From Cytophagales bacterium (lineage in GTDB: Bacteria; Bacteroidota; Bacteroidia; Cytophagales; 172606-1), in contig JAUJMU010000015.1 in the NCBI GenBank assembly GCA_030446715.1, positions 36,953-100,952 on the forward strand: a DNA stretch of 64,000 nucleotides, in the 5' to 3' direction. Every line of letters starts with the position of its first letter. The stretch's first letter is position 1. A model generated the notes under the pieces. The model had not been told where the DNA came from. It saw only the letters and a list, made by a program, of their open reading frames with translations, and made no database searches. The position numbers and the translations under genes are program-made. Shown here piece by piece: positions 4,065 to 50,964 of this stretch.

Positions 4065-4068
4065 TATT

Positions 4069-6940: not shown

Positions 6941-7384
6941 TTATGCGCCCGGTTTGCGTATCTGCGTGACCAGCAGGTTGGAACTGCCTTTCGCCAACAG
7001 TTTACCTTCCGTATCCAAAACGCGGCATTCAGCGTGGATGATGTTACGCCCCTGCCGTACAATACCGGAGTGAGCCGTGATGCTACTGCCCAGCTTCGCA
7101 CCGGCCAGAAAATCAATGTTCAGGTTTACGGATGTATAGAAAAATTCGTGGTGGAGGCTGAATACCGTCATGCCGATCACATCATCAATGATGGCCGCCA
7201 CCATGCCGCCGTGGATGATGCCCATGGGGTTGGTCATTTCTTCGCGTACTGTGAATTGCAGCGTCAGCTCACCCGGCTCCGCCTTCAGCAGGGTGCCCCG
7301 CAGCCACCGCGACAGGGGAGAAGGGCTTTCCGTGATTTCCTGCCCCAGCCGGGCCTGCATCCATTGAATCGTTGGGTTGGACAT
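6941..7384 (-). CDS. PaaI-family hotdog-fold thioesterase
   Basis: NPMGIIHGGMVAAIIDDVIGMT motif and ~147 aa length are typical of PaaI/YbgC-like thioesterases. Start set at MSNPTIQW. Confidence 0.85.
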   Translation of the reverse strand: MSNPTIQWMQARLGQEITESPSPLSRWLRGTLLKAEPGELTLQFTVREEMTNPMGIIHGGMVAAIIDDVIGMTVFSLHHEFFYTSVNLNIDFLAGAKLGSSITAHSGIVRQGRNIIHAECRVLDTEGKLLAKGSSNLLVTQIRKPGA

Positions 7385-7757
7385 ATAAATTGAAAATTGA
7401 TAATTGACAACTGAAAATGGGGTCAGATGGTGGGTTTGCTGCATGGTTGAATGGTTATATGGTTGAATTGCTGGCTTGTCCAATTGTTATTCATCAGACA
7501 ATTGCTGTTCTCCTGTTGTCAGTAAAGCATAAGAAAATACAGAGTAACAGCCCTCAGCCATGCAACCTTCGGCCATCTGACCATATAACTATCCGGCCAT
7601 GCAACCACAAATAGCCGTCCGCATCCGGACACTTTCTGGTCGTATGCGAACAGGCAACTTTGTGGTTTACGCGGAATAGCTGGTTTTGATGCCCTTTTGC
7701 CGGCTGGCATGTAAGTTGGCACCCGTAGGACACACTCACCACCGAACTTTTTGCCGC

Positions 7758-10142: not shown

Positions 10143-10203
10143 TTTCATTCAAGGTTAAATTCGGAATAGACTTGTTTTTGATATTCAATGGCTTAATGGA
10201 AAG

Positions 10204-10349
10204 AACCACCCCCGGCCTCTCCTTGAAAAAAGGAGGGGAGTCGTACCCATCGGCTTCGTCTAAAAGGAAAGTATCGTATACGCCTCCTGCTGATGCAGCC
10301 GTACCGTTCGGGTTCCCCTCCTTCCTTCAAAGAGGGGACAGGGGTGGTT
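10204..10349. repeat. GC-rich compound inverted repeat (AACCACCCC...GGGGTGGTT family)
   Basis: Outer arms AACCACCCC / GGGGTGGTT, each next to an internal hairpin (CTCTCCTTGAAAAAAGGAGGGG; CCCCTCC..GAGGGG). Related copy at 46337-46428. Confidence 0.6.
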
Positions 10350-10452
10350 ATTCTTTACAAACATTCCATCTCCCTGTAAATCAAATAGGAATGAGTCTAA
10401 TGAATGTGAGTAGCCTTCATTCAGGAATCAAAAATTAAACACCACCAAAGCC

Positions 10453-12855: not shown

Positions 12856-12894
12856 GGGAGGCCTGAGAAAGGGAAACCGGATGGGAATTTGCGG

Positions 12895-12930
12895 CCTTTG
12901 CGTGAGACAAACTTTTATTTCACGCAAAGG
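12895..12930. terminator. Hairpin of the CACGCAAAG repeat family downstream of permease 2
   Basis: CCTTTGCGTGA (12895-12905) pairs with TCACGCAAAGG (12920-12930) across a 14-nt loop. Further CGCAAAG units follow. Confidence 0.45.
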
Positions 12931-13079
12931 CGCTAAGAGTACCGCAAAGAGAAATAAATACAGAGCAGAAAAGCCTGTTCTGCTGCTTCTCCTGCAGGAA
13001 AAGTTATTTGTCGTGCAACCCGGGGCTGCCTTTTTACATCTCCCGGACATCAGGCTGAAAATTCATAAACACTTCCACC

Positions 13080-13699
13080 ATGAAAAAGCTTTTCTACCTC
13101 CTCCTGCTGCTGTTGCCGGCACTGGCCGTGGCACAGAACAATGTAGACGCCCGGGAAATCATCGACAAGATCAACCGCGGCGAGACAGTCACGTACCGCA
13201 ATGCCACCATCACCGGCAAGCTTGATTTTACCGGGCTCAGCAACCGCACCCTGAAGCCCGAAAAGACTTACGCCAGCTGGACCGGAAGGACAAAAACCTT
13301 TATCAGCACCGTAAACGTACCCCTGCAGTTTACCAACTGCACCTTTACGGATGAAGTGCTGGCTTACTACAGCGTAGAAAAGGAGAATGATGAAGGCGGT
13401 AGTGAGATTTACAAAGCTGACTTCAATCAGGATGTGCTGTTTGAGGGGATGCACCTTTAAAGGGCAGAGTCGTTTGCTTTCAGCCTCTTTAGCAGTATTC
13501 CATATTTACGGAAAAAGCCTTCTTTGCCGGCAGTCGTTTCAATAACGAAGCCTTGTTTAGGTATACCGTCTTCAAGACCACGCCTGATTTCAGCAACGCT
13601 GTTTTTGAGGAGGAAGCAAACTTCAAGTACACTAAATTCAAAGAATCGGTGAATTTCAGCGGGGCTACATTCCGAATAGCGGCCATTAAATGTTTTTGA
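13080..13699 (+). pseudogene. Secreted pentapeptide-repeat-like protein with apparent frameshifts
   Basis: Intact part 13080-13460 has signal peptide MKKLFYLLLLLLPALAVAQ. The repeat-like sequence continues in other frames (CTFKG.., AESFAFSLFSS.., EKAFFAGSRFNNEALFRYTVFK..ANFKYTKFKESVNFSGATF). The shifts sit at G-runs. Confidence 0.55.
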
Positions 13700-13798
13700 T
13701 AGCAAATGGAATTTGTGAATTTCAAATGCTCAAAATTCCTTTTTCCGGCAGGAAGCCATTCCTGCTACAGTTCTCCATTTGCCTAAAACCTGAGGGCC

Positions 13799-16221
13799 AT
13801 GTTCAAGAATTACGTTATTGTCGCCTTCCGCAATCTCTGGAAAAACAAGGCTTATTCCTTCCTTAATATAGCCGGCAAGTCTGGCCCACGCCGTGGGTAT
13901 GGCTTGCAGCATCCTCATCCTGTTCTGGGTGGAACGAGGGTACGAAAGGATCTACGAACAATCCGTTTTAGCACCGAAGCAGCTGATATTTACTACATCC
14001 GCGAAAACCAGACCTACGAAGGCCGGTAAAATTTTCACCTGTTCGGTGCTACGCCACCGGATATTTACTACATCCGCGAAAACCGACCTGCGAAGGCGGC
14101 GGAGGGGTCCGCTGGCGGAGGGGCGATTTCCCGGAAATCATAGAAGCCGTGCGGGTAAACTGGAACAGTAATGTGCTGTTTGCCTACGGGGAGAAGCGGT
14201 TCCGCGAGGAGGGTAAATACGCCGATCCGGGCTTCTCTTCAATCTGTTCTCCTTCCGGTCCTGAAAGGCGACCCCAAAACGGCTCTGAATGACATTCACT
14301 CCGTGGTGATTACCCGGAAAATGGCTGAGAAATACTTCGGCAACCCGAGGACCCGATCGGCAAAGTCATGCGCCTGAACAACAAGGAAGATTATAAGGTA
14401 ACTGCCGTACTGGAAGATATTCCCCCCAACTCCAGCATCAGTTTCGACTTTCTGCTGCCCTTCGGGAATTTTTTACGAGAAAATGAGTGGTTGAATCATT
14501 GGGGCAACAACGGGCTGCAGACCTTTATAAAGCTGCGGCCCGGCGCTTCGGGCGAAGCCGTGAACCGGAAGATTGCCAACTATATAAAAAAGAACAACAA
14601 TGACTCCAACGCGGAACTGGTGCTCCAGCCGCTGACGGATATTCGCTTATATTCTGAGTACAAGGACGGCAAAAATGTGGGTGGCCGGATTTCGTACGTA
14701 CGTTTATTCGCCGTGGTGGCGCTGTTCATTCTGGCCATTGCCTGCATCAACTTCATGAACCTGAGTACGGCCCGTTCGGAAAAGCGCAGCAAGGAAGTAG
14801 GCGTACGCAAGGTGATGGGTGCCGTCCGGGGCCTGCTGATCCGGCAGTTTCTGGGCGAGTCGCTGCTGATGTCGGTGCTGGCCCTGTTTCTGGCGCTGGT
14901 GCTGGTGTCGGTGGTAATGCCGTTTTTCAACGAAATAGCCGGCAAAAAACTGGTACTGAACTGGCTTGATGGCGAGCACTGGCTGCTGTTTGCCGCCATC
15001 ACGGTCTTTACCGGGGTGCTTGCCGGGAGTTATCCGGCCCTGTTCCTGTCGGGCTTTAACCCGGTGCAGGTGCTGAAGGGCACCGTCAAGACGGGCAAGG
15101 CCGCCGTACGGTTCCGGCAGGTACTGGTGGTGGGGCAGTTCTTTTTCTCCATTCTGCTCATCATTGCCACAATCATCGTGTTTCAGCAGATCAATTACCT
15201 GCGCAACCGGCCGCTGGGCTACGATAAGGATAACCTGATGATGGTGTACATACAGGGCAACATGCACGACAGTTACGAAAGCATCAAAAGGGACTTGTTA
15301 CAGGTCGGCGGCGTGAGCAGCGTAACCAAGTCCTCGCAATCTGTTTTTGAGGTGGGCAGCAACACCGGTGATGTACATTGAGCCGGTAAACCGGAAGGCA
15401 TGAATACCCTGTTCGGGGTGGTGCAGACGGATTATGATTTTACCAGAACCTTAGGCATGCAGCTGAAGGATGGCCGCGACTTCTCCCCGGACCGCGGCAC
15501 CGATTCGCTGTCCGTCCTGATCAATGAAGAATCCGCCCGGCGCATGGGCATGAAAGACCCGGTCGGTAAAACCTTGAAGCTTTGGGACAAGGACTACTCC
15601 ATCATCGGGCTGCTGAAGGATTTCCATTACAATTCGGTGTATTCGCCGGTGGAGCCGCTGATCGTTCAGCTGGCACCGCAGGACAGCTACATTTTCGTGA
15701 GAACGGAGAAAAACATACCGTTGCCCGCTACCATTGCATCGGTAGAGGGCGTATTCAGAAAATTCAACCCGGCCTATCCCTTTGAATACCGCTTTCTGGA
15801 CGATGAACTGGAAAAGTCTTTCAAAAGTGAGCAGCAACTGGGGCAGCTGGCTGCCTGGTTTGCCGGACTGGCCGTACTGATTTCGTGCCTCGGCTTATTC
15901 GGGCTGGCCATGTTTACCGCCGAGCAGCGCCGCAAGGAAATAGGGGTGCGCAAAGTGTTGGGGGCATCGGTATCCGGCGTGGTGATGCTGCTGGCGAAGG
16001 AATTCCTGAAGCTGGTGCTGGTGGCTTTCCTGATTGCCGTGCCCGTGGCGTGGTACGCGGCCGGCCAGTGGCTGCAGTCATTTGCCTACCGGACCGATGT
16101 TACGTGGTGGGTATTTGCCCTCACCGGCAGCCTAGCCCTTTTTATTGCCCTACTTACGGTCAGTTTCCAGTCACTGAGGGCGGCACTGGCTAACCCGGTG
16201 AAGTCGCTGCGGAGTGAGTAG
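13799..16221 (+). pseudogene. FtsX-like permease, paralog 3, disrupted
   Basis: Pieces 13799-, 13893-, 14171-, 14368-15381 and 15400-16221 together rebuild a full paralog. At least 3 frame changes lie in the first 600 bp. There is a 75-bp-period tandem duplication (13985-14023 / 14060-14097) and an in-frame TGA at 15379-15381 (..GDVH*AGKPEG, Trp expected). Confidence 0.8.
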
Positions 16222-16228
16222 CCCCCTG

Positions 16229-16243
16229 TCCCCCGAAGGGGGA
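16229..16243. terminator. Short GC hairpin between convergent genes
   Basis: TCCCCCGAAGGGGGA (6-bp stem, GAA loop) lies between permease 3 (+) and the last glycosyltransferase (-). Confidence 0.35.
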
Positions 16244-40098: not shown

Positions 40099-40207
40099 GC
40101 CGGGTGTCAGAATTGGTTCTGGTATAGGGCAGATAAACGACATATGTCGTAGTTACAAGTGTTGGCACAAATTTTAAAAATATCTAGACTTAAATATTAA
40201 ATTTAAA

Positions 40208-41482
40208 ATGAGAAATGTTTTATTAGTTAGTTTATTATTACTAAGCTATTTCAGTTATTCACAAAATAGTAGAACTACAATGTTAAATAGTAGAACTACA
40301 ATATTAATAGGTCTCGACGGTTTCAGATGGGATATTTTAGACAGAGAAAATGTCTCAACTTCTAATTTGAGAGAAATTCGTAAGAACGGAGTTCGTTCTA
40401 AATTAATCTCAAGAATTCCATCATTATCTTTCCCCAATTTATATACTTTGGTAACTGGATTAAATCCAGAAAACTCAGGTATTGTATCTAATGAAACATA
40501 TTTACCAAAGGAGAATACTTTTTTCTCAAACAAATCATTTAAAGAATCCAAGTGGTTTCAAGGAGAACCAATTTGGGTTACTGCAGAGAAACATAAGATT
40601 ACCACAGCTACTATGTTTTGGATTGGTTCTGATGCAAAAATAAAAGGATTCTCACCTACATATAGTCACGAGTTTAACGTTAAAAAATGGAACCCTAATT
40701 CAAGAGCACAAGAGGTTTTAAGATGGTTATCACTCGAAGAAAATAAACCAGAATTCATTACTCTTTACTTTGATGAAGTTGATAATGCAAGTCAAGATTT
40801 TGGAATTGGTTCTGATGAAGAAAAAAAGGCAATTGAAGTAGTTGATGAGGCTATTGGAATACTAATTAAAGGACTTAAAGAAAAAGGATTGTGGGAACGC
40901 ATTAACATTGTTGTTGTTGCAGACCACGGCATGACCGAAACAAGTCAGGACAAAGTAATTTATTTGGATGATTACATCAATACAAAAAGTCTAGATGTAT
41001 TTGCTTTCAACAACCATCCATATTTTACCTTTAGCGATGCTAATTGTGTAAATAATTGTGATTCGATTTATTCTAAGTTAAAAATTGCACATCCAAAATT
41101 ACAAGTTTATAAACGAGAAGACCTTCCAAAAAGATTTCATAGAAAAAATAGTGACCGTCTTGGGGATTTAAGCCTTCATCCAGATTTGGGCTGGGTTGTA
41201 ACGACTCATCAGTTATTTAATGAAACTCTAAAAGGAAAACCGTTTTCAAATAATGAAATAACATATAATGGAGGGTTTATGAAAGCAATACACGGTTATG
41301 ACAGTAAGTATGAAGATATGTATGGAATATTTTTAGCTATGGGTCCATATATTAAAAAAGGAACAGAAATTGAGCCATTTGATAATATCAATGTTTATTC
41401 ATTACTATGTAAAATGCTAAAAATCAAGCCAGCTAAAAATGATGGTTCAATTAAAGTGTTTGAGAAAATTGTCACTTATTAA
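40208..41482 (+). CDS. Ectonucleotide pyrophosphatase/phosphodiesterase (ENPP, alkaline-phosphatase superfamily), secreted
   Basis: LIGLDGFRWD and ..PSLSFPNLYTLVTGLNPENSGIVSN.. motifs plus a signal peptide. Very AT-rich. First ORF of the island. Confidence 0.85.
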   Translation: MRNVLLVSLLLLSYFSYSQNSRTTMLNSRTTILIGLDGFRWDILDRENVSTSNLREIRKNGVRSKLISRIPSLSFPNLYTLVTGLNPENSGIVSNETYLPKENTFFSNKSFKESKWFQGEPIWVTAEKHKITTATMFWIGSDAKIKGFSPTYSHEFNVKKWNPNSRAQEVLRWLSLEENKPEFITLYFDEVDNASQDFGIGSDEEKKAIEVVDEAIGILIKGLKEKGLWERINIVVVADHGMTETSQDKVIYLDDYINTKSLDVFAFNNHPYFTFSDANCVNNCDSIYSKLKIAHPKLQVYKREDLPKRFHRKNSDRLGDLSLHPDLGWVVTTHQLFNETLKGKPFSNNEITYNGGFMKAIHGYDSKYEDMYGIFLAMGPYIKKGTEIEPFDNINVYSLLCKMLKIKPAKNDGSIKVFEKIVTY

Positions 41483-41616
41483 TTAAGTATACTTACTTTT
41501 TAGTTACTGAATTAGTGTCAATCAAATTTTAGAATGTATTCTCAATTAAGTATGAAGAAATACGAACTCATCGTATAAGTATTTCTGTAAAAAAGATATT
41601 TATAAAGAAAAAACTT

Positions 41617-41686
41617 TAGCCAACAATATGTAAACGCCAGCATCGGCCGATGGCCTCGCCACCGCTTACACGAGAGCGTTATATGC
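41617..41686 (+). repeat. attC-like element (short, divergent member)
   Basis: ..CCAACAATATGTAAACG..CATCGGCCGATG..CGCTTACACGAGAGCGTTATATGCC. TGTAAACG pairs with CGCTTACA, the centre is a 12-nt palindrome, and the 3' end has a GTTAT box. Confidence 0.4.
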
Positions 41687-41736
41687 CAGCATGAGGAAAG
41701 AGGCTCAACTCATAGCCGACGCACGAACCGGGCCAA

Positions 41737-41828
41737 GCATATAACACTGTCCACGCCGCCACTGGGCCACTGACCCACGGGGCCAACTGATGGGCCCTTG
41801 CAGCGGGTGGCCTTGGTCCGTTATGGGC
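41737..41828 (+). repeat. attC-like element
   Basis: GCATATAACACTGTCCACGCCGCC...GCAGCGGGTGGCCTTGGTCCGTTATGGGC. The ends match the family consensus. Confidence 0.6.
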
Positions 41829-42062
41829 AACCGAAGAAGAAACACGTTTGGCGTGACGAGAAGAGGCAGGTGAAGTCGAAAAGTGCCTAGCCCAAAGAGC
41901 AGAATCAACGGTTGCATAACCAAACAAGGCTGACGCAAGGAAGTATGGCAGGCAGTCAACAGCTGAATCAAAAAGACGTTTGGCGACCCGGAACAACGTT
42001 GTAAAGAGACCACGAAAGCCGACAGTCAGCGAAAGAATGATAAATTGAAAGGAAAGGGTTTA

Positions 42063-42154
42063 CCCATAACACTGCTCACGCCGACCACCGGTGCGCCCCA
42101 CCGCATAACCAAAGCTTGAGCACACGGCGTCGGGTGGGCTTGCTCCGTTAGCTA
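42063..42154 (+). repeat. attC-like element
   Basis: CCCATAACACTGCTCACGCCGACCACCGG...CGGCGTCGGGTGGGCTTGCTCCGTTAGCT. The next ATG (42157) follows the GTTAGCT box by 3 nt. Confidence 0.7.
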
Positions 42155-42156
42155 GC

Positions 42157-42699
42157 ATGGAAAATAAATGGCGCATATCAAATCAAGTGAGATTGAAAAA
42201 CATAATATTATTCATACAGCTGTTTGCCTGCGTATGTTGTGCCAAAAAACAGCAAGGAACATCTAATGGAAGCCCGGAAGAAACCATCAGAACAACTACC
42301 GAATCGCTGAAAGCTGATAAAAAAGATTATGATAGTTATCTGATGAGAGGAGTAGCCTACAAAGAATTGGGGAAACTGAAAGATGCGCTCAGCGATTACA
42401 ATAACGCTATTAAATTTGCTTCTGCTTCTGATGATGAGTTTGCCCGGCATTCGTTAGTTGAAGCATATAATATGAGAGGCAGTTTATATAATCGATCCGG
42501 CCGTAAAGATGAAGCCTTGTTGGACTATGACAAGGCAATCGAGTTGAATCCGAAAAACGATTATGCGTATTATCACAGGGGGATCATGAGGGTAGAAATG
42601 GGACAATCCGAACTTGGATGTGCAGATCTCAAAAAGGCCAGTGAAATACTGCCCGTTGTTGATATATACAATGATGCTTTGGAGGAGTACTGTAAATGA
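42157..42699 (+). CDS. TPR-repeat lipoprotein
   Basis: Hydrophobic leader ending ..LFACVCC, then three or four TPR units (..YLMRGVAYKELGKLKDALSDYNNAI.., ..YNMRGSLYNRSGRKDEALLDYDKAIELNP..). Confidence 0.8.
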   Translation: MENKWRISNQVRLKNIILFIQLFACVCCAKKQQGTSNGSPEETIRTTTESLKADKKDYDSYLMRGVAYKELGKLKDALSDYNNAIKFASASDDEFARHSLVEAYNMRGSLYNRSGRKDEALLDYDKAIELNPKNDYAYYHRGIMRVEMGQSELGCADLKKASEILPVVDIYNDALEEYCK

Positions 42700-42931
42700 T
42701 TCTATCCTTTTGAAGGAGCTCAGTCCAGGCGTAGGCGGGAGTATTTGTGCCTTTCCGTTTTGCAAGGGTCTGAGTTTAATCCCCTGCCAATGTTGTTTTT
42801 ACCAATAACTTGACCGTTGGTGAAGACGGCAACCACCACTGATGAAAATAGAATCATTTTAATTGGAGCAGTGATTTGTATTCCCCTTCTTGTCGCTGAT
42901 AAAGTAGGGATAAAAGAATAAGGAATCACGC

Positions 42932-43024
42932 TAGCTAACACCAGCCACGACCGGTCACTGGCCCGCCTCACCGCATAGCCAAACAGAAGTGCACAGCGCC
43001 GGGTGGCTTCGGTCCGTTATGGCC
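42932..43024 (+). repeat. attC-like element
   Basis: TAGCTAACACCAGCCACGACCGG...CACCGCATAGCCAAAC...GCGCCGGGTGGCTTCGGTCCGTTATGGCC. The centre is homologous to 42063-42154. Confidence 0.7.
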
Positions 43025-43039
43025 AATTAATAAAAAAAT

Positions 43040-44320
43040 ATGCGTTTTCTTATCCTACTATTGTGGCTACTAGTTTGGTTATTTCCATCAGATGAAACTC
43101 TGATTAGAGATGCACTAGCTTCAAAAACAACTTTGTTGACAACTATAGAACCAGGATCGGAAACAAATGATTTACAATTTCTTTCAGTTCTTCTAAAAGA
43201 TAAGCGAATAATTTCTCTCGGAGAAGCTACTCATGGTACAAGTGAGTTTTTCAAAGCCAAACACCGGTTGCTAGAATACTTAGTTGAGCAGGAAGGGTAC
43301 CGTTTATTTGGCATTGAGGAGAACTTTGCCTTGTGTAGCTTATTAAATGCCTACGTGTTGCATGGTAAAGGAGAAGCTAAACAACTACTAACTTCTCTCT
43401 ATGTGTGGCCCTGGCAAACCCAAGAGGTACTGGCAATGATAAATTGGATGAGAGCCTATAATATTAGACAATTAAACGCTAATGAAAAGATTAAATTCTT
43501 TGGGATTGATATGCAGCAAGGATACGATGCAATGGAAGAACTAAAGACCTTTTTTAAGTTAACAGACCAGGATTTTTATCAGACCTTGGTTGCCAGCAGT
43601 CCTTCAATAGCTAACAAACAAGAAAAAATCATGTATGTAGCGGACTCTGCTACTATAGAAAAGATAGACTTTGTTTTACAAAAGAACAAAAATCATTACC
43701 AATCTTTAACCTCCGAGAAAGCATGGCAGCTTTCTTTACAACATGCCAATATCCTGAGGCAACACTACCAGATGCGGAAGGCATATGATAAAGTTAAACA
43801 AGGAAAAGTTTCCTACCGGCAACTAACTCAAAGCCGGGACAGCTCGATGGCCATCAATGTAAAATGGATTTTAGATCAAGAGGGGCCAAACAGCAAAATA
43901 GTGTTGTGGGCTCATAACGCACATATTTCCCAAGGAGGTTATCCCGGTTACAAAGATGCCTCGATGGGTTCTTATTTAAAAAGGATTTATGGCAAACAAG
44001 TATATGCGATTGGGTTTGACTGCCTGGCAGGTACTTATACTGGTTTGGGAGGAAGTCCGCGTAAGCTGGGTGTACAAACCTTACCAACAGTAGAAAAAGG
44101 CAGTTTTACAGATATAATCAATCAACTAAATAAGCCAATTGTATATATTGATTTCAAAACAGCAACAGCAGATACATTGTTAAATAAGTGGTTAGAAAGC
44201 CCTCAAACCATCCGCTATCATGGAAGTACTGCTACAGGTATATTGCCTAATTGTTTTGATGCAATGATCTTCATTAGAAATACGACTGCCACTAAACCGC
44301 TATACCCAATTGATAAATAA
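43040..44320 (+). CDS. Erythromycin esterase (Ere) family protein, secreted
   Basis: Hallmark ..ISLGEATHGTSEFF.. motif of the Ere family (PF05139-type). 426 aa with an N-terminal signal. Macrolide activity cannot be inferred. Confidence 0.8.
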   Translation: MRFLILLLWLLVWLFPSDETLIRDALASKTTLLTTIEPGSETNDLQFLSVLLKDKRIISLGEATHGTSEFFKAKHRLLEYLVEQEGYRLFGIEENFALCSLLNAYVLHGKGEAKQLLTSLYVWPWQTQEVLAMINWMRAYNIRQLNANEKIKFFGIDMQQGYDAMEELKTFFKLTDQDFYQTLVASSPSIANKQEKIMYVADSATIEKIDFVLQKNKNHYQSLTSEKAWQLSLQHANILRQHYQMRKAYDKVKQGKVSYRQLTQSRDSSMAINVKWILDQEGPNSKIVLWAHNAHISQGGYPGYKDASMGSYLKRIYGKQVYAIGFDCLAGTYTGLGGSPRKLGVQTLPTVEKGSFTDIINQLNKPIVYIDFKTATADTLLNKWLESPQTIRYHGSTATGILPNCFDAMIFIRNTTATKPLYPIDK

Positions 44321-44333
44321 AAAAGAAATGACT

Positions 44334-44427
44334 GGCCATAACACCCTTCTGTCCGACAACCTTGCCTACCTGGGCACAATGATCAGCAAAGGCTACGGTA
44401 TGCGGCAGCAGTCGGTACATTATAGCG
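44334..44427 (+). repeat. attC-like element (3' box degenerate)
   Basis: GGCCATAACACCCTTCTGTCCGACAACC...GCAGCAGTCGGTACATTATAGCGC. GTCCGAC pairs with GTCGG-AC around one unpaired base. The 3' box is ATTATAG instead of GTTATAG. Confidence 0.55.
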
Positions 44428-44455
44428 CATTGGAAACAGACCAAATACTAACCTG

Positions 44456-45367
44456 ATGATAAGATTTATTGCTCTTATTTTTTTTCTGAATAGTTACTTA
44501 ATTTGTTTCGGCCAGCAGAAAAAAGATAAACCGGCTTACAAGAAGATACAGATTCTGTTACTAGGCACGTTCCACTTTCATCAAAGTCTAGACTCTAACA
44601 GTCGTCTCCATTCCAATTTATTTACCGAGAAAAGGCAGCAGGAAGTAGGCGAAATTGTAAGTAATCTGGCAGCATTTGCTCCTGATAAGATTTTCATCGA
44701 ACGCAAGACGAGTGAACAGGCCTATACCGACAGTCTATATGCAGAATATAAAAAAGGCAATGAACCAAAGGATGTAAAAGTACTTGCCAACGAAATTGTA
44801 CAGCTTGGCTTTAAAACCGCTAAGAAACTTAATCTTCCTGCACCAGTATGTGTGGACTTCCGGCCGGAAGGCTACTCAAAACAAGATTATGTCCCTAAAT
44901 ATGAAATGGAGAAGCAGGTTATAGAGATATGGCGGCAATTTGACGACAATGAATTCCGGGAGCTGGGACGCTACGATAACTCATTTCTCGATAAACGACA
45001 TCCGGTCAGGAAAGCTTTTAACGAAGACTCGTTGCTCCAAAAAATAACTTTAAAAGATTTTCTCCTTTTTTTAAATACCTCTGAATCTTATGTAAGAGAT
45101 ACTTACTCCAACTGGAATTGGATGTACGGTATAGGTAAGGACAATGATTACTCAGGCATAGATTGGCTAGCAAACTTTTGGTATGGTCGTAACGCAAAGA
45201 TTTATGGGAATATATTAAGGCAAGTGGATTACCAAAATGATCAGAAGTATCTCCTTATTGTAGGTGCCTCCCACCTTTCGATTCTCAAACACTTGTTTGA
45301 GGAAAACCCGTATTTTGAAGTAGTTGAGGTGAATAAGGCCCTAAAACAGGAGAAAAAAAGAAAATGA
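44456..45367 (+). CDS. Hypothetical secreted protein (TraB/GumN- or DUF5694-like)
   Basis: Signal peptide and the ..ILLLGTFHFHQ.. motif recall DUF5694/TraB-like proteins. The family name is unverified. Confidence 0.55.
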   Translation: MIRFIALIFFLNSYLICFGQQKKDKPAYKKIQILLLGTFHFHQSLDSNSRLHSNLFTEKRQQEVGEIVSNLAAFAPDKIFIERKTSEQAYTDSLYAEYKKGNEPKDVKVLANEIVQLGFKTAKKLNLPAPVCVDFRPEGYSKQDYVPKYEMEKQVIEIWRQFDDNEFRELGRYDNSFLDKRHPVRKAFNEDSLLQKITLKDFLLFLNTSESYVRDTYSNWNWMYGIGKDNDYSGIDWLANFWYGRNAKIYGNILRQVDYQNDQKYLLIVGASHLSILKHLFEENPYFEVVEVNKALKQEKKRK

Positions 45368-45379
45368 AGTAGAAAAACG

Positions 45380-45473
45380 CGCTATAACACCGCACAAAAC
45401 CGACAACTGAGCCGCCTTAGCGCATTGCCTCAGCTTGAGGCTACAGTCGCGGTTGTGCTTGATGCGTTAGCTG
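45380..45473 (+). repeat. attC-like element
   Basis: CGCTATAACACCGCACAAAACCGACAAC...CAGTCGCGGTTGTGCTTGATGCGTTAGCTG. Confidence 0.65.
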
Positions 45474-45506
45474 TTGTTAGAAAGAATAAAAATCGAATAA
45501 ACTGTG

Positions 45507-45610
45507 TTAGGCTGTGTCTGGTGAATCCCCGATCAGGAAGTTTGATGCAATAGGAGGCACTTTTTCGGCCGATTTTACCCTGTGAAATGATTCATCAGAC
45601 ACAGCCTAAG
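45507..45610. repeat. 20-bp terminal inverted repeat pair enclosing 64 bp (MITE-like or long hairpin)
   Basis: TTAGGCTGTGTCTGGTGAAT (45507-45526) versus ATTCATCAGACACAGCCTAA (45591-45610); 19 of 20 nt complementary. Confidence 0.55.
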
Positions 45611-45639
45611 TTGTGACATCAAACCAAAAGATACCAACA

Positions 45640-45883
45640 ATGACAATACAGCAAGAAATAAAAACCAGCTTTCATCATCTGATTGATGAGATAGAAAATG
45701 AGGAATTGTTGAAAAAGGTTTATCATCTGTTGAAAGATTATCCAAAGAGAAAGAAACAGAGGATTTTTGGGATACACTTACAGATAAGCAAAAAGAAGGA
45801 ATAGATTCGGCTTTGAAGGAAAGCGAAGATGAGGATAATTATATTTCCCACGATGAGGTAAAGCAAGAAGCGAAAAATGGCTA
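45640..45883 (+). pseudogene. Putative addiction-module antitoxin with one apparent frameshift
   Basis: MTIQQEIKTSFHHLIDEIENEELLKKVYHLLKDYP continues as KEKETEDFWDTLTDKQKEGIDSALKESEDEDNYISHDEVKQEAKNG* if one A is added to the A3 run at 45744-45746. Its stop overlaps the toxin ATG (ATGGCTAA). Confidence 0.5.
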
Positions 45884-46299
45884 AGCAAATAATTTGGTTA
45901 AAATCCGCCAGAGACAGGTATAAAGCCATTGTAGAATAGTTGAAAGTTGGGTGGTCAGAAAAAGTAGCTGATGAGTTTGTCGGGAAGGTGCATGACAAGT
46001 TAGAACTGTTGAAAATATTTCCCCAGCTTGGAGCAGAGTCAGATAAGAAGAAATTACGAAAATTAGTCCTTTCTCCACACATAGGGCCATCGCACCAAAA
46101 AAAGGGCATTTTTAATGTGCCTTCACAGTATTCAGGTATGCATTATAACGCATGTTGTGCCGAGTTTTCTGGTATTGATTCCCAAAATGGCCAGTTGACC
46201 AAATTATCAACTGTTGTTTGTAGCATTAGAGGCGCTTTTGCCCAAAAATGCCCCAAATTTGATGATGCCTATTTCTCCACACAATATATTGATTTATAG
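45877..46299 (+). pseudogene. RelE/ParE-family toxin with in-frame TAG
   Basis: MAKQIIWLKSARDRYKAIVE*LKVGWSEKVADEFVGKVHDKLELLKIFPQLG...LRKLVLSPH. TAG at 45937-45939 sits where Tyr is expected. The family resemblance fades after ~46090. Confidence 0.55.
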
Positions 46300-46336
46300 T
46301 ATACTGCGGTACATTTTCCCTTTCTGCGTTTTGGAG

Positions 46337-46428
46337 AACCTCACCCCCGGCCCTTCTCCCCGGGAGAGGGAGAAAACCGCGTTGTGGCTCCCCCCTCTCA
46401 TCAGGAGAGGGGGCTGGGGGGTGAGGTT
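46337..46428. repeat. GC-rich compound inverted repeat (same family as 10204-10349)
   Basis: AACCTCACCCCCGGCCCTTCTCCCCGGGAGAGGGAG ... CCCCCTCTCATCAGGAGAGGGGGCTGGGGGGTGAGGTT. Marks the right edge of the AT-rich island. Confidence 0.6.
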
Positions 46429-46495
46429 CAGGATAGAACGTACCCGTAGTATAGATTTATAGAATTAAGGGAGATGTGGACATACTATTGAGCAT

Positions 46496-47725
46496 TTATG
46501 ACAGTAGGCAAAAAGCTGACTGAAATGAATGAAAACAACAGTGAACATCAACTATTCCGGTCAGCGGGCCGCCAACGCCAAAGGCTGACGCTTCGAGCCT
46601 CGCTGCCGTATAGTCATGTTCATTACCAGCAATCGAAGGAGGCTGACCACTTTGATTGATTACCACAATGTAAAATGGCTGACCGTTTATAATGCAGCCA
46701 CACAACAATGGCAATCCAGCCATTCAGCCATCCACCTCTTCACCTCTCAGAATCAGCTCCTGCTGCAGTTGCTTCAGCTCCTGATTCATGATGATGATTT
46801 CATTCTGCAGCACTTCGATCAGGCTGATTCTCCGGTTGATTCCGTAAGGTTATACCTGCCGCCGGGGCCAAAAAGCAGGCGGTTGTTTTGTTCACGCTCC
46901 TCAGTGCCCTCATCATCCAGCAGGTCAAGCTCTTTCCAGCGTTCCAGAATCGTCTCGCGTACCGTCTGGGACTGTTTATCGGGCTCAAATTCCCGCGTGA
47001 GAAAATGCCAGACCATGGGAGGATACACTTTTGAGACCGGGGGATTTTCCTGAATATCGGTCAGGTGGTTGCGCCGGTGGAGGAATTCTGCTTCTTCGTA
47101 CCCCCAGCGCCCGGATGGCCCAGTAGCCGCTCAGTACCGCACCCGCCATGGCCGGTGTTTCAATGTATACATCATCCGCGCCGAAGATGGCCAGCGTTCC
47201 CGACACCACTGTTGACAGGGCACCAGCCAGCACCGAATAAACGGTAAGCCGGGTCACCCGCCGGTCTATTCCCTGTTCGAGGTAGTTTTTCAGTTCATTG
47301 GCCCGGGCCCGCTTCACCTCTATTTCTGCCAGCACCGAAGTCAGTTCCTGCGTGGCCAGCAGGATGTGGTCCGATATTTCCTGCCGGAGGACCAGCAGCC
47401 TGATCCGGTCCGGCTCAGAAGAGTTTTTCTCCAGATCCTGCTGGTCTGCAGCCACGCCGAAAGCACCGCCTCAACGCCGATGTCGGCCGCCACACTCCGC
47501 CCGCTGCGAAAACCGACGCCGGACCGAGGGAAAAAGTGGTATCCGGGTCAGCCGTTCCGTCCAGAGGGAATCAAAATAGACGGCGGCGGGAGGGGTAACG
47601 TAGCAGTAGTTTTCGGCCGTGAAAATAGGCGTTTGCCGGGTGCGGTTTACCCGGCAACCGAACAAACCGGCTGCCATCAGCAGCCAGGCAGCCGCCAGCG
47701 TGAAGCGGGAAATTCTTGCAGACAT
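46496..47725 (-). pseudogene. Lipoprotein gene of unknown function, broken into four or more frames
   Basis: Starts with lipoprotein signal MSARISRFTLAAAWLLMAAGLFGC (ATG 47725). Continues through ORFs 46985-47455, 46819-47028 and a further frame (..LIEVLQNEIIIMNQELKQLQQEL..). Confidence 0.4.
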
Positions 47726-47743
47726 GCCCGTTATACGGCAACC

Positions 47744-47776
47744 GGGGCCTTGATGGCCGGGTGCGGATCGTAGTTT
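47744..47776 (-). repeat. Displaced copy of the thyA 3' end (direct repeat with 48799-48831)
   Basis: Identical 33-nt core GGGGCCTTGATGGCCGGGTGCGGATCGTAGTTT. On the minus strand it encodes ..[14 protein letters not shown] and is followed 5 nt later by the lipoprotein ATG. Confidence 0.85.
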
Positions 47777-47795
47777 CCGTCAATAAATCCGTCAA

Positions 47796-47819
47796 TAAAA
47801 AAGCAGCTCTATAGCTGCT
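47796..47819 (-). terminator. Rho-independent terminator-like hairpin (minus strand)
   Basis: Minus strand reads AGCAGCTATAGAGCTGCT followed by TTTTTT. Lies at the distal end of the AT-rich insert. Confidence 0.5.
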
Positions 47820-48273
47820 CCATTATCGATCAGGATCGGGAATCGGTTATTTTTTCACGGGTCAAACTTCGAAAACCATGCTGCCTGAAATATTGATCGG
47901 CCTCCGCCAGTTTAGTACTGGGTTTCTGTTCCCGCTCCTTTTTGGGGAAGTTTTTTCTCTATTACCCTTGTTTTTGGTGAATGTATCTGCCATAATTCAG
48001 TGAATTTATTTACTCTACCCAGCTATTTTTAAGTCTTGATAATCAAAACGTTGTAAAAAAAGTGACATTTTTCAGTAATAAGATCGGATTCAGGATGGAA
48101 TTTTATCTCCTTTCCCTTCCTGTATGCTGGATAAATGCCCGGATTTCTTCCGGTGAAAGCCAATCTTTCCGCCTTTACTGGTTTTGTAGACAAAGGGAGA
48201 AAAATGAAAACTACGCTGAAAAAATGTAACTACCTGATAATTAGCATTTAAAAAAAGCTGGGTAGAGTAGAAT

Positions 48274-48741
48274 TTATTTAAACAAATGTAGTAAATGAAC
48301 GGGGACTATCAACAGATAGTCATACTTTACATTACTGACAAAATCTTCTGAGATTCCATTGTTAACGCTCAGGATTGTGAATTGGTTTATGAAAGCGGCT
48401 CCGTATTCTCTTACAATTTTGCGGTAAATGTAGCTGCGGGAGCTGGTGCTTCCCTGAACCGCGATGATTTTATCAGGAAAACGATTAAAAAAGAGAGGAA
48501 TGGTCTGTACCACGGTGGCCATTATTTTCTCTCCATCACCATTTTTACTTTCGGCTCTGTCGTCAAAGTCAAGCGTGTTTCCGATACGGTCTCCGAATCC
48601 GAGATTCACAAAGACCGGCAGGGAAGGGAGTTCTTCGTATTTAATCAATTTTTCAATGATCCCTTTCGGGCCATTGCTGTTGAAGCTTAGTGCCCAAAGA
48701 GCAGTTGGTATTTCGTGCGTGTTGTAACTTTCCGAATTCAT
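48274..48741 (-). CDS. Hypothetical protein (DUF6934-like), carried on the thyA-adjacent insert
   Basis: 155 aa from [10 protein letters not shown]... The motifs ..NLGFGD.., ..[18 protein letters not shown].. and ..[11 protein letters not shown].. resemble a Bacteroidota family I recall as DUF6934 (unverified). AT-rich. The listed 353-aa ORF is a read-through chimera with thyA. Confidence 0.55.
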
Positions 48742-48785
48742 TGAAGCAGTAAACTCAAAACTTTGTCCTTTCTTCTGCTTCGGGA

Positions 48786-49579
48786 CTAAACAGCAACTGG
48801 GGCCTTGATGGCCGGGTGCGGATCGTAGTTTTCCAGCCTGAAGTCTCCGTAGGTAAAGCCAAAAATATCTTTCACCGCCGGATTGATCCGCATCCGGGGC
48901 AGGGGGCCGCAATTCCGCGACAACTGTAGTTCTACCTGTTCGAGGTGGTTCAGGTAAAGGTGCGTGTCGCCGCCGGTCCAGATGAATTCGCCGGGCTGCA
49001 GGTCGCACACCTGCGCGACCATCATGGTCAGCAGGGCGTAGGAAGCAATATTGAAGGGAAACACCCAGAAACACGTCGGCGCTGCGCTGGTAGAGCTGGC
49101 AGGAGAGCCGGCCCTCGGCCACGTAAAACTGAAAGAAGGCATGACAGGGAGGCAGGGCCATCTTTGAAACATCGGCTACGTTCCAGGCGCTGACAATCAG
49201 CCGCCGCGAGTCGGGATTGCGCCGGATCTGCCCCACCACATCCGTGATCTGGTCAATAGTTTGGCCGTCCGGGGCGGCCCAGCTGCGCCACTGCTTGCCG
49301 TAGACCGGACCCAGTTCACCGTTGGCATCCGCCATTCATCCCAGATGCTCACGCCGTTTTCCTTCAGGTAGCGGACGTTGGTTTCGCCCTTCAGGAACCA
49401 GAGCAGCTCATGAACGATGGATTTGAGGTGAACTTTTTGGTGGTAACCAGCGGAAACCCTTCCGAAAGATCAAACCGCATCTGGTAACCAAACACACTGA
49501 GGGTGCCGGTGCCGGTACGGTCTTCTTTTCGTACACCACCGGACAAAATATGGCGCATCAAATCGTGGTACTGTTGCAT
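48786..49579 (-). CDS. thyA: Thymidylate synthase, with three apparent homopolymer frameshifts
   Basis: Pieces 49391-49579, the N-terminal part of 48274-49335, and 48786-49172 rebuild a full ThyA ([62 protein letters not shown]). The shifts are at T5 49434-49438, CC 49332-49333 and A3 49059-49061. Confidence 0.9.
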
Positions 49580-49745: not shown

Positions 49746-50182
49746 ATGATGTTCTTTCAGGAGTCCTATCTGACCATTTCCATTGATGAATACTCACAGT
49801 GTCTGATCCAGACCTGGAAGGGTTACGCCAGATCCGGTGAGTTCCGGAAAGGCATTGAAGAGTCAATGAGGTTATTTCAACAAAAAAAGCTCAGCAAGAT
49901 CGTAAGCAATACCAAAGAGTTTGCCGTAGCCCAGAAGGAAGATACGGACTGGGTATCCGGTTACGCAATGCCCATTCTGGTAGAACACGGACTGAAGTAC
50001 ATGGCTTTCGTTATGCCGTTGAGTTCATTTGCCCAGGTGTCGGTGTACAATTTCAAGTCTCAGGCTGATAAAATGGTCACCATCAAGTATTTTTTGTGGA
50101 GTTTGACCACGCCAAGTCCTGGATTGATTCAGTGGATGACTCATTTGCCGTGGCTCCGGGCCGGCTTACGGCCATCTGTTGA
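49746..50182 (+). CDS. Hypothetical protein, one apparent frameshift in a T6 run
   Basis: MMFFQESYLTISIDEY...KMVTIKYF continues as ..VEFDHAKSWIDSVDDSFAVAPGRLTAIC* in another frame after the T6 run near 50090-50095. Confidence 0.45.
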
Positions 50183-50964
50183 GCGGATATACATTTCCAT
50201 CTGGTCCCCATCCGTTTCCATCCATTCATTGTATTCCTGCTGCCCGCAACCGCCCGGGTTCGGTGATGTAGCCATCGGCGCCAGCTGCGGCCCGCGGGCT
50301 TCTGCCACCTTCGCCCATATGCCCATCCGGGCAGGGTAATCAGCATCCGTCCGGCGGGTTAGCTCTGACTGATCACTGACTGAAATATCCTCCAGACCTG
50401 CCTCCCGGAAGTAGCCGGGCAGGTGATCGGCAATGTCGTTCAGCATACCGGCATCAGCCCGCCACTGCAGGAATGCCCGGTAAAAACTGCATGCTGGCGG
50501 GAGGAGCAGGGTCCCAGCGGATTTTCGTGATTGTAGTCCAGCACCGACAGCCAGCCGCCGTCCCGGAGCAGGCTACTCATCTGCCGGAGGGCGGAAAAAG
50601 GGTCGGCCAGCCACTGCAGGGTCCGGGCGGAGGCCACCAGATCAAAGAGGTGGTCGGGCTGGTAGGTGCGGATGTCAGCGACGGTGAAGGAGAGATTTGC
50701 CACGCCCTGGTACTTTTCCCGGGCCTGACTGATGAGTTGATCACTGACATCAATGCCAATTACCTTACCGGTTTCTCCCGCAAGCCTGGCCATTCCGCAG
50801 GTGATGGCTCCCGTTCCCGCAACCAACGTCCAGTACAGTCATTCCCGGCGTGATCAGGCCTGGCAGGCTACGGTACGACGTCTCCAGAGTGCGCTGGTCC
50901 AGAACCGCTGGCTGCTGCCGGGCGGCGTGCGGGCCCGTCCGGCGGCAAGGGAGATATTCTTCAT
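50141..50964 (-). pseudogene. Class I SAM-dependent methyltransferase with three or more apparent frameshifts
   Basis: ..VLDVGCG(T)GAITCGMARLAGETGKVIGIDVS.. (motif I) and ..LLRDGGWLSVLDYN... ORFs 50440-50826 and 50141-50446 plus an N-terminal piece from ATG 50964. Confidence 0.65.

Follow-up and report, generated by a model that had tools for sequence, protein, structure and literature searches.

Why does the 3' end of a thymidylate synthase gene occur twice, on either side of about one kilobase of AT-rich DNA? The question arises in the window, by which we mean the whole stretch of 64,000 nucleotides of Cytophagales DNA that was analysed. A repeat search found the thyA 3' end in two directly oriented copies, at 47732-47776 and 48787-48831, which are 45 nt long, 93% identical and 1055 nt apart. 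Within them is a perfect core of 33 nt, GGGGCCTTGATGGCCGGGTGCGGATCGTAGTTT, which occurs exactly twice in the window (47744-47776 and 48799-48831). None is expected by chance, with no occurrence in 100 dinucleotide-preserving shuffles even when 3 mismatches were permitted. All of the genes involved (thyA, the genes of the insert and a lipoprotein-like gene) are on the minus strand. The parts of the locus are as follows.

48786-49579, minus strand: thyA (thymidylate synthase), Pfam PF00303 on fragments.
48787-48831, minus strand: attL-like copy A of the thyA end, with its core at 48799-48831.
47777-48786, minus strand: the insert, 1010 bp with 39.9% GC and without a counterpart in related genomes.
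47777-47800, minus strand: a tandem 12-nt repeat, two units of TTTATTGACGGA, abutting the core at the right end of the element.
47732-47776, minus strand: attR-like copy B of the thyA end, with its core at 47744-47776.
46739-47725, minus strand: the lipoprotein-like gene, 331 aa in relatives, with a signal peptide (..LLMAAGLFGC).

An earlier reading, made by a model from the letters alone (the sequence-only reading), had described an AT-rich insert of about 1.05 kb between direct repeats of the thyA end, with an identical 33-nt core and with copies that differ by synonymous changes and in the stop. Our repeat search and shuffles bear out the repeats and the core, and the insert is indeed AT-rich, its GC content being 39.9%, while the window has about 53% and thyA and the flanks about 60%. 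There are four differences between the copies, each of them synonymous or in the stop codon, so both encode the same 14-residue end of thyA (..PVAV and stop). The copy adjoining thyA ends in CCAGTTGCTGTTTAG, and the other ends in CCGGTTGCCGTATAA followed by CGGGC and an ATG, the lipoprotein-like gene starting 5 nt past the original thyA stop. All four differences fall in the last 12 of the 45 nt and none in the core, which is as predicted for a gene end carried in by an element and not for a target-site duplication. We also considered the whole insert as a transposon insertion and rejected this, because it requires a short (2-15 bp), initially identical duplication and the repeat here is 45 nt; the clustering of synonymous and stop-codon differences at one end disfavors it as well. 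The last 13 nt of thyA, 48786-48798 (CAGTTGCTGTTTAG, with a TAG stop), are a replacement end borne by the element.

Related genomes show the locus unoccupied. In five loci (L030, L031, L045, L046 and L047), the thyA stop is followed by CGGGC and the ATG of the lipoprotein-like gene, and there is a single copy of the repeat. When L030, L045 and L046 were compared with the window by blastn, both flanks abutted at this place, overlapping by exactly the 45-nt repeat. L045 and L046 are conspecific MAGs with a downstream flank about 99.5% identical to that of the window, and copy B together with the downstream DNA is the conspecific attB (6 mismatches in 1340 nt). The distal 12 nt and TAA stop of copy B are the original thyA end; they are identical to the single-copy site of these two MAGs, and copy B is near-identical to the site in L030 and L031. 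With empty single-copy sites in five relatives, two of them conspecific, 47777-48786 is an insertion. The match of the conspecific attB to the distal copy and the DNA beyond it makes the distal copy the original and the copy contiguous with thyA an imported replacement, which is how the sequence-only reading had assigned them. That reading had named thyA directly before the lipoprotein-like gene in relatives as its check, and relatives with the duplication yet without the insert as the case against it; the five loci show the first and not the second.

Might the insert instead be ancestral here, and have been lost from the five empty relatives by precise recombination between the repeats? Direct repeats do permit precise loss, and a distant relative, L001 (described below), has the same module after its thyA. 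We consider this very unlikely, however, as all five of the relatives with the lipoprotein neighbour are empty, conspecific strains included, and the more distant L021-L029 also have no insert. The base composition of the insert is foreign, and the repeats would still need an earlier integration to arise.

The insert carries the following features.

48274-48741, minus strand: DUF6934 gene, 155 aa, intact, Pfam PF22028 with E 3.8e-33.
48011-48269, no strand: MITE-like element, 259 bp with 35.5% GC, splitting the two cargo genes.
47830-47993, minus strand: small partner gene of about 54 aa (MADTFTKNKGNREKTSPK/KEREQKPSTKLAEADQYFRQHGFRSLTREKITDSRS), from a three-frame translation.
47800-47821, minus strand: terminator-like hairpin GGAGCAGCTATAGAGCTGC with a T run, after the partner gene.

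Pfam confirms the DUF6934-like ORF that had been called at 48274-48741, with a score of 115 bits against a cut-off of 27 and a match over profile positions 3-142 of 145. An AF2 model of the protein, built on 6 sequences, has a pLDDT of 81. Its top Foldseek matches in the PDB are all GNAT acetyltransferases, but these are weak (E 2e-3 to 0.1, TM 0.35-0.43), and there is no Pfam GNAT match in the protein. Our literature search found no paper mentioning the DUF6934 family. The sequence-only reading had given the insert this one ORF only, which is not correct. There is also the small partner gene, which has one frameshift in a homopolymer run, and this frameshift is an assembly error. The partner homologue in L001 is MATTFLKK..KPSTKLKDAETYFKKYGFPKF, and an ORF of this kind is found within about 10 nt after DUF6934 in 28 of 34 loci. 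Some 500 bp of the insert had also been described as non-coding DNA with a hairpin. The terminator-like hairpin is there, but the stretch is not simply non-coding, with the partner gene and the 259-bp MITE-like element inside it. No Rfam family was found in the insert, a plasmid search for DNA matches and a phage search for protein matches were both empty, and PADLOC matched neither cargo protein.

The MITE-like element is bounded by terminal inverted repeats of 35 nt, which begin TACTCTACCCAGCT, and by 9 bp of duplicated target (GAATTTATT; 48002-48010 and 48270-48278), and it has no coding capacity. We found no further copies in the window or in 46 loci. Removing it in silico restores the operon, with 16 nt from the stop of DUF6934 to the ATG of the partner, a gap comparable to the 6 nt in L001. 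Without the nested element and one target duplication, the insert is 742 bp.

The DUF6934 protein is 71% identical to P0002, whose gene also follows thyA. L001, a 1.2-kb short-read Logan contig, is the only other example of DUF6934 linked to thyA. It has a 71%-identical DUF6934 pair directly after thyA, although its thyA is much more AT-rich and comes from a different organism. The replacement end in the window, GTTGCTGTTTAG-TCC-CGAAG, resembles the thyA end of L001 with the next bases, GTAGCCGTTTAG-CGAAG. A second copy of the thyA end is absent in the 220 nt past the terminator of L001, and since this is the sole other thyA-linked case, the boundaries of the element are confirmed in the window only. 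Scans of genomes and metagenome contigs for further thyA-linked pairs gave only relatives of 30-45% identity, none of them less than 10 kb from thyA.

The assembly is of error-prone long-read data with systematic homopolymer deletions. thyA is full length but has three frameshifts and a compensated pair in the assembly, and E. coli ThyA spans three reading frames in tblastn; once reconstructed, the protein shares 95% identity with P0007. The thyA frameshifts lie in homopolymers, as do deletions seen only in the window relative to L045. The lipoprotein-like gene, which has no match to a Pfam family, is also frameshifted in the window by assembly deletions. It could be argued from such deletions, and from a step in identity at the core that could resemble a join of two strains (see below), that assembly created the duplication and the insert, either as an artefact or by chimerically joining two populations in a metagenome-assembled genome. 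We find this very unlikely. The copies differ at four positions, each with a distinct and meaningful context: copy B is the conspecific attB, and copy A ends similarly to the thyA that is linked to the element in L001. Long-read assemblers use overlaps far longer than 33 nt, and the adjacency of thyA and DUF6934 occurs independently in the short-read contig.

We also searched for an enzyme. There is no recombinase in the insert, which contains DUF6934, the small partner and the MITE, and tblastn with IntI1 and XerD found no tyrosine recombinase in the 64-kb window. The sequence-only reading, too, had seen none in the insert. A circular junction and a second copy of the element or of the 33-nt core were not found in the sequences searched, nor was a thyA-3'-end element with an integrase among the loci examined. 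An IntI1-like match in L003 was set aside as a recombinase adjoining an IS91-type gene and not an integron integrase.

Downstream of the core, identity to the conspecific strains is 99.5%, but directly upstream of it, where the conspecific remnant of thyA is compared, it is about 90% (23 mismatches in 227 nt). Because the drop is exactly at the core, this copy of the insert probably entered the lineage with a foreign thyA allele and not by fresh integration; for the same reason, integration in the window's own lineage is not directly shown by the data. Judging from these identities, the insert was probably imported together with a thyA allele diverged by about 10%, via homologous recombination resolved at or beside the core. 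It may be, however, that the thyA remnant of L045 and L046, instead of the thyA of the window, is the imported allele. In both of these MAGs only an orphaned 3' fragment of the native thyA is left, and the foreign DNA ahead of it carries a thyA of its own, so thyA remnants beside imported thyA genes do occur in the species. A tyrosine-recombinase element adjoins thyA there, but it joins the gene at codon ~170 and not at the core. The thyA locus of this Cytophagales species is repeatedly remodelled by mobile DNA.

These observations bear on a reading that needs no dedicated recombinase, in which the arrangement is RecA-dependent. Either circular DNA with 45 nt of thyA homology entered by a single crossover, or a linear fragment with a foreign thyA and the DUF6934 pair was imported, joined at its left side through homology and at its right side illegitimately, 45 nt short of the native thyA end, in which case copy B would be the orphan remnant of the native gene. 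A thyA body about 10% diverged right up to the core beside downstream DNA that is 99.5% identical, the native orphans next to foreign thyA-bearing DNA in L045 and L046, and the failure to find a recombinase all speak for this reading. It has more trouble with the repeat itself. We estimate a probability of about 3% for 33 identical bases between alleles some 10% apart and of about 0.3% for all four differences lying within the final 12 of its 45 positions. On its element side, attR meets thyA sequence exactly where identity begins, with the tandem 12-mer abutting, and L001 has the same module in the corresponding position, behind a thyA that is very different. In addition, homology of 33-45 nt is close to the minimum for efficient recombination by RecA. 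We think that this reading is unlikely, but we take it seriously.

We believe that the insert is probably a CIME-like element, small and flanked by att sites, that has no recombinase of its own and was integrated by one encoded elsewhere. It has the direct repeats of the thyA end, relatives in which the site is unoccupied, an intact target and no genes for integration or transfer inside. CIMEs are defined as retaining attL and attR without integration genes; they have neither integrase nor transfer genes and are expected to rely on the recombinase of a related element (PMC5704250). In such a model, a circular form carrying a 45-nt thyA-like attachment site would recombine Campbell-fashion with the thyA 3' end, the crossover lying within the 33-nt core. 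thyA would be kept intact, ending in the synonymous last codons and TAG stop of the element, and the original end would be displaced while still abutting the lipoprotein-like gene. The predicted attP junction is ..TTATTGACGG plus the core plus AGTTGCTGTTTAGTCCCGAAG... The circular junction would read ..TTTATTGACGGAAACTACGATCCGCACCCGGCCATCAAGGCCCCAGTTGCTGTTTAGTCCCGAAG.., and the empty site ..GGCCCCGGTTGCCGTATAACGGGCATG, preceded by the thyA body of the window strain. The cargo is a two-gene operon, DUF6934 and the partner of about 54 aa, with its own terminator, and the MITE inserted later between the genes. The recombinase, most likely a tyrosine recombinase, would have to act in trans and come from another part of the genome or from the gene pool. 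The tandem 12-nt repeat, which is unique in the window and does not occur in L001, L030, L045 or L046, could be a protein-binding site. The insert may be a decayed remnant or, if it is still mobile, a satellite mobilised in trans.

The same cargo is found in other settings. In Riemerella, Ilyomonas and other Bacteroidota, DUF6934 and its partner lie between attC sites. On the Riemerella plasmid NZ_CP072192.1 the pair is a cassette between ere(D) and blaOXA, with a perfect 10-nt R'/R'' pair (GTTAGCAGTA / TACTGCTAAC), and in L008, L018 and L040 it has perfect 8-nt R'/R'' pairs. A cassette signature was seen at the DUF6934 pair in 4 of 27 loci and in none of the shifted controls. Across Bacteroidota the pair turns up repeatedly as a mobile unit, one example being the multiresistance plasmid of Riemerella, which makes it a reasonable target for functional work. 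Separately, imperfect direct repeats of 75-184 nt lie on either side of the module in L007, L012, L034, L036, L037 and L041, and no Rfam families were found in these repeat-flanked relatives.

The window also has cassettes of its own.

40163-46630, plus strand: integron gene-cassette array, low in GC, with at least 7 attC sites and no adjacent integrase.

Among its cassettes, Pfam identifies a phosphodiesterase, a TPR protein, a member of the erythromycin-esterase family and DUF5694, and its content differs in L045 and L046. R' and R'' have perfect 9-nt complementarity at 42147/42931 and at 43016/44334, and 12 of 15 pairs covary in the attC alignment. The last attC is at 46538-46630 on the plus strand. 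Integrons have been reported as rare in Bacteroidetes (PMC9024848); this Cytophagales species has a variable cassette array.

With the array ending 1.1 kb from the insert and the DUF6934 pair a canonical cassette elsewhere, as on NZ_CP072192.1, we asked if the insert might be an integron cassette placed by the integrase of the lineage, for which the thyA end, with its ..AAC-N30-GTT.., would have served as pseudo-attC or secondary site. Within the repeat, the identical stretch does reach from an AAC to just before a GTT, and ACGGAAAC and GTTGCCGT in attR are complementary by eye at 7 of 8 positions. A covariance model was trained on 12 attC sites of the Cytophagales host species. It scores six sites of the array at 55-94 bits and two sites outside the training set at 37 and 81 bits, but even with filters off and E<=10 allowed it matches neither of the thyA repeats, which largely refutes the integron-cassette reading. 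The same model misses the longer attC type of Chitinophagaceae and Flavobacteriales, and the thyA end is by eye unlike that type. Folds of attR, attL and the reconstructed attP have no attC-like hairpin, only the terminator and a 4-bp GGCC hairpin. By eye, the 5' end of the unit matches the putative R'' at 6 of 8 positions at best, whereas true cassettes in the window, L046 and L048 match perfectly over 9-10 nt. The unit is beyond the lipoprotein gene, outside the array and in the opposite orientation, and insertion at an integron secondary site does not create a target duplication of 33-45 nt. We therefore regard cassette insertion as highly improbable. There is only a slim chance that the DUF6934 pair shuttles between two capture systems, as an attC-bounded integron cassette in Flavobacteriales and Chitinophagales and here as a miniature att-type element with the thyA end for its attachment site. 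In the boldest form of this reading, the integron integrase of the lineage, or a relative of it, would use the AAC..GTT-bounded thyA end as a surrogate site, and cassettes could be stored away from the array at the end of a housekeeping gene and later recovered.

For an att-flanked element without a recombinase, as we prefer to read the insert, there are several known systems to compare. In Streptococcus thermophilus, CIMEs derived from ICESt1 and ICESt3 are found at the 3' end of fda. As in those, attL and attR of the insert include the 3' end of a protein-coding target, and there are no integrase or transfer genes. The insert differs in being much smaller (two genes in 742 bp without the MITE), in its target, thyA of a Cytophagales bacterium, in having no cognate ICE or IME that we could find, and in carrying what is elsewhere an integron cassette. 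It shows how small an att-flanked element can be, with two genes in 0.74 kb. It also documents thyA as an attachment site. The sequence-only reading had remarked that thyA is not known as a commonly described integration target, and we likewise found no earlier report in the literature searched. The current understanding of integration mechanisms is unchanged; this is a small, integrase-less case of an ordinary mobile-element footprint in an unusual target gene.

That footprint is best known from e14 and phage 21 in E. coli icd, which carry near-identical last codons with synonymous differences, leaving the target intact and a displaced pseudo-end downstream. The insert likewise supplies a substitute thyA end with synonymous differences and leaves the original downstream, although e14 and phage 21 have their own integrase and are tens of kb, whereas the insert is 1 kb without a recombinase. 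In staphylococci, the SCC and pseudo-SCC elements that insert at the rlmH (orfX) 3' end are also bounded by direct repeats in the last codons of a housekeeping gene, and variants without ccr depend on recombinases in trans. SCC elements use serine recombinases, are found in another phylum and are much larger with resistance cargo, and no sequence relation to the 1-kb insert is expected. Unlike integron cassettes, the insert has no attC, is bounded by a duplicated gene end and stands outside the array in the opposite orientation. Like them, it is a compact, promoterless-looking unit of cassette-like size (0.7-0.9 kb) with the same DUF6934 pair.

A repeat search of the window found the 45-nt 3' end of thyA twice in direct orientation, 1055 nt apart. 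The relevant genes of the region from thyA through the insert to the lipoprotein gene are all on the minus strand, and the two copies are placed as follows.

49579 to 48786, minus strand: thyA
48787-48831, minus strand: copy A, contiguous with thyA
47732-47776, minus strand: copy B; CGGGC comes next, then the ATG of a lipoprotein-like gene

The copies share an identical 33-nt core that has no other occurrence in the window and was absent from all 100 shuffles, even with 3 mismatches allowed. Both copies translate to the same 14-residue C-terminal end. Their 4 differences are all outside the core and are all synonymous or in the stop codon (copy A ends in CCAGTTGCTGTTTAG and copy B in CCGGTTGCCGTATAA). 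The sequence-only reading had described a duplicated thyA end with synonymous and stop-codon differences; the repeat search, core count and shuffles bear out the first point, at the coordinates given, and the two translations the second.

To find unoccupied sites, we took a reconstructed ThyA and a relative's lipoprotein as queries and looked up the contigs that encode the matches. Five loci have thyA, 5 nt and then the lipoprotein gene, with one repeat copy, which is the arrangement that the sequence-only reading had anticipated for relatives with an empty site.

L030 and L031: JGI metagenomes, ~88% DNA identity
L047: GCA_034690465.1
L045 and L046: MAGs GCA_030447595.1 and GCA_030448035.1

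On L030, L045 and L046 the flanks of the insert are adjacent and overlap by exactly 45 nt. L045 and L046 are conspecific with the window 3' of the site (6 substitutions in 1340 nt), and their site matches copy B and the bases that follow it, base for base. Because of this identity, copy B ends in the original thyA end and the end in copy A is a replacement brought by the insert, in agreement with the polarity first proposed. The opposite history, with an ancestral insert that was precisely lost in the relatives, is in our judgment quite unlikely. In more distant relatives (L021-L029), thyA is followed by a short-chain dehydrogenase gene and the insert is absent.

The insert (47777-48786) is 1010 bp with a GC content of 39.9%, compared to ~60% for thyA and the lipoprotein gene and ~53% for the whole window. 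Its parts, in minus-strand reading, are listed here.

First in the insert: thyA end carried by the element, with stop codon TAG, and 44 nt after it
48741-48274, minus strand: intact DUF6934 gene (Pfam E 3.8e-33)
48011-48269: MITE-like element of 259 bp; terminal inverted repeats of 35 nt, target duplication of 9 bp (GAATTTATT)
47993-47830, minus strand: ~54-aa gene with one frameshift, in a homopolymer run
47821-47800, minus strand: terminator hairpin
Abutting copy B: tandem 12-mer TTTATTGACGGA, two copies

Without the MITE and one target duplication the unit is 742 bp, and 16 nt separate the DUF6934 stop from the ATG of the small gene. The single ORF noticed earlier is indeed DUF6934, but the ~500 bp taken for non-coding DNA holds the MITE and this second gene. 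The ~54-aa partner had no Pfam family match, and neither protein had a PADLOC match. An AlphaFold model of the window's DUF6934 protein (pLDDT 81, from a six-sequence alignment) gave Foldseek matches to GNAT acetyltransferases only, and these are weak (E 2e-3, TM 0.35–0.43; shallow alignment); we treat the predicted likeness as a lead and not an assignment.

Aligned with the near-identical L045, the window has 14 gap columns in 1340 nt, all of them deletions in the window and most in G/C homopolymers, and L045 retains an open 331-aa lipoprotein reading frame. Errors of assembly almost certainly explain the frameshifts in thyA, the small partner gene and the lipoprotein gene. Systematic 1–2-nt G/C homopolymer deletions relative to L045 are found at 46.5–52.5 kb and elsewhere in the window, and as a result thyA, the small partner, the lipoprotein gene and a methyltransferase gene (50141-50826) are broken. 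Such deletions are typical of unpolished long-read assembly, so the broken genes are not real pseudogenes.

The nearest DUF6934 protein (P0002, 71% identity) is on L001, a 1.2-kb Logan contig. There thyA is much more AT-rich, DUF6934 begins 20 nt past its stop, and a homologous small gene follows after 6 nt, then a terminator. The thyA end of L001 and its next bases read GTAGCCGTTTAG-CGAAG. They are similar to the window's replacement end, GTTGCTGTTTAG-TCC-CGAAG, which is consistent with a gene end that is part of the element. The last 220 nt of L001 have no second copy of the thyA end. L001, itself incomplete, is the single other thyA-linked example found; thyA was not near DUF6934 in 32 distant loci (30–45% identity; genomes and metagenomes) or in 4 plasmids. 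We regard an assembly artefact as very unlikely; against it speak the distinct, meaningful contexts of the two copies and L001, an independent short-read contig.

We consider it probable, though well short of certain, that the insert arose by Campbell-type site-specific integration. A small circular element carrying a 45-nt thyA-like attachment site would have integrated at the thyA end by means of a recombinase encoded elsewhere, which would leave an att-flanked, integrase-less unit of the CIME (cis-mobilizable element) type [PMC5704250]. All 4 differences between the copies are in the last 12 of the 45 positions, which argues against a target-site duplication and against chance juxtaposition of two alleles. 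That the module recurs in this position after a very different thyA counts against both as well. Integration into the 3' end of a gene, as suggested at first sight, is supported by the empty sites, the replacement end and the clustering of the differences. The insert had also been said to lack a recombinase, and tblastn with IntI1 and XerD found none there or in the whole window. The unit may be what is left of a decayed element, or a satellite that another element still mobilises in trans.

In the sister strains L045 and L046 the native thyA is a 3' fragment only, from about codon 170, and immediately 5' of it is foreign DNA with a tyrosine recombinase, 184-aa and 196-aa proteins and a complete, divergent thyA (62–69% identical).

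L045 1-3142: region with this arrangement
L046 5500-9757: region with this arrangement

When its fragments are joined, the recombinase reaches 33 bits against Pfam Phage_integrase (cut-off 27), and the foreign DNA looks like an element that disrupted thyA and brought its own replacement. The native fragment is contiguous with 99.5%-identical downstream DNA (46450-47776; 6/1340 differ), whereas 5' of the core it has ~90% identity to the window thyA (23 of 227 nt differ, 48832-49058), and the step in identity is abrupt at the 33-nt core. Judged from this identity profile, one of the two thyA alleles, that of the window or that of L045/L046, appears to have been imported by a recombination event that ended at the core. 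In the simplest account, a related donor supplied the window's thyA and insert through homologous recombination that was resolved at the core or beside it; the L045/L046 remnant could instead be the imported allele. This mosaic and the orphan thyA fragments also support RecA-dependent or illegitimate joining with no dedicated recombinase, but the identity pattern of the two copies speaks against such joining and we regard it as unlikely.

Among the loci examined, 28 of 34 have the conserved ~54-aa partner within about 10 nt 3' of DUF6934. Four loci have the diagnostic integron-cassette signature around the pair, in which an attC just past the partner starts with the exact reverse complement of the bases that follow an upstream G|TT; position-shifted controls gave 0.

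Riemerella anatipestifer plasmid NZ_CP072192.1: 10-nt match, between ere(D) and blaOXA
L008, L018 and L040: 8-nt match each

On the Riemerella plasmid (L048, record 15602-16243) the pair is a canonical cassette (GTTAGCAGTA / TACTGCTAAC, ~139-nt attC), and the multiresistance cluster around it also has catB, estT, erm(F) and tet(X3). A Myroides albus plasmid has a similar match. L008 (Ilyomonas sp. chromosome OZ244776.1) has at 6100-14500 an array of at least 9 attC-type repeats of ~140–206 nt, which start ..YAAC-ARGRGGTTTTGYGTCAGCACGGCTGAC and end ..GCAAAGCCCGRACGTT; two different cassettes of DUF6934 with partner are in this array. At L007 (2837-3934), L012, L034, L036, L037 and L041 the pair is between imperfect direct repeats of 75–184 nt, ~0.9–1.0 kb apart, which in L007 terminate in 34 identical nt. 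These repeats had no Rfam family match and may be long attC sites, shared cassette leaders or att-type duplications.

The window, from a Cytophagales genome, has a genuine integron cassette array of its own. It is the low-GC island at 40.1–46.6 kb (40163-46630, plus strand), which lies 1.1 kb past the insert and contains at least 7 attC sites, each about 94 nt long. Its cassettes encode a type I phosphodiesterase, a TPR protein, an erythromycin-esterase family protein and DUF5694, and some have no ORF. The array has AlaDh and the lipoprotein gene as its two neighbours; no integrase adjoins it and none is in the window. Cassette starts have perfect 9-nt complementarity to their own attC at 42147/42931 and 43016/44334, and in an alignment of 12 sites, 12 of the 15 predicted pairs show compensatory changes. 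A covariance model from these 12 sites recovers the array and two sites outside the training set.

46538-46630: attC
4066-4160, minus strand: attC, 81 bits

The second site is far from the main array, between small ORFs (3813-4106 and 4164-4580, both minus strand) with no Pfam matches, and adjoins an IS-like DDE transposase split over 2573-3130 and 3143-3790. L046 has a chain of at least 7 cassettes with this kind of complementarity between start and attC. Cassette content is unlike among the window, L045 and L046, so the integron system was recently active; integrons are rare in Bacteroidetes according to IntegronFinder 2.0 [PMC9024848].

Two small insertions account for 368 nt of the window (46082-46449) that are missing from L045 and L046. 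The first, palindromic and MITE-like (~154 bp, about 46303-46458), has the ends TATACTGCGGTAC / GTACCCGTAGTATA and a target duplication, GATTTATAG, of 9 bp, the length also seen for the MITE in the thyA insert. The second, of ~199 bp, lies between copies of a TTTCTCCACACA repeat. The last cassettes also contain a 21-nt inverted repeat (45507-45609; 95% complementary, 61 nt apart; TTAGGCTGTGTCTGGTGAATC / GATTCATCAGACACAGCCTAA) whose ends, GTTAGGC..GCCTAAG, are in the reverse of the usual attC order.

Since the cargo is a cassette elsewhere, we tested the thyA repeats as attC sites. The covariance model had no match at them (E<=10, filters off), and on folding neither attR nor the reconstructed attP formed an attC-like hairpin, which rules them out as attC sites. 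The insert unit is outside the array and in opposite orientation. Insertion by an integron integrase is largely refuted and highly improbable.

Our literature search found no paper mentioning DUF6934 and no description of thyA as an attachment site. A cassette-type gene unit that shuttles between attC-based and gene-end-based capture is an idea of low probability. The anatomy of the insert is like that of e14 and phage 21 in icd, ICE-derived CIMEs at fda and ccr-less SCC-like elements at rlmH, although the insert differs in size, target, phylum and cargo.
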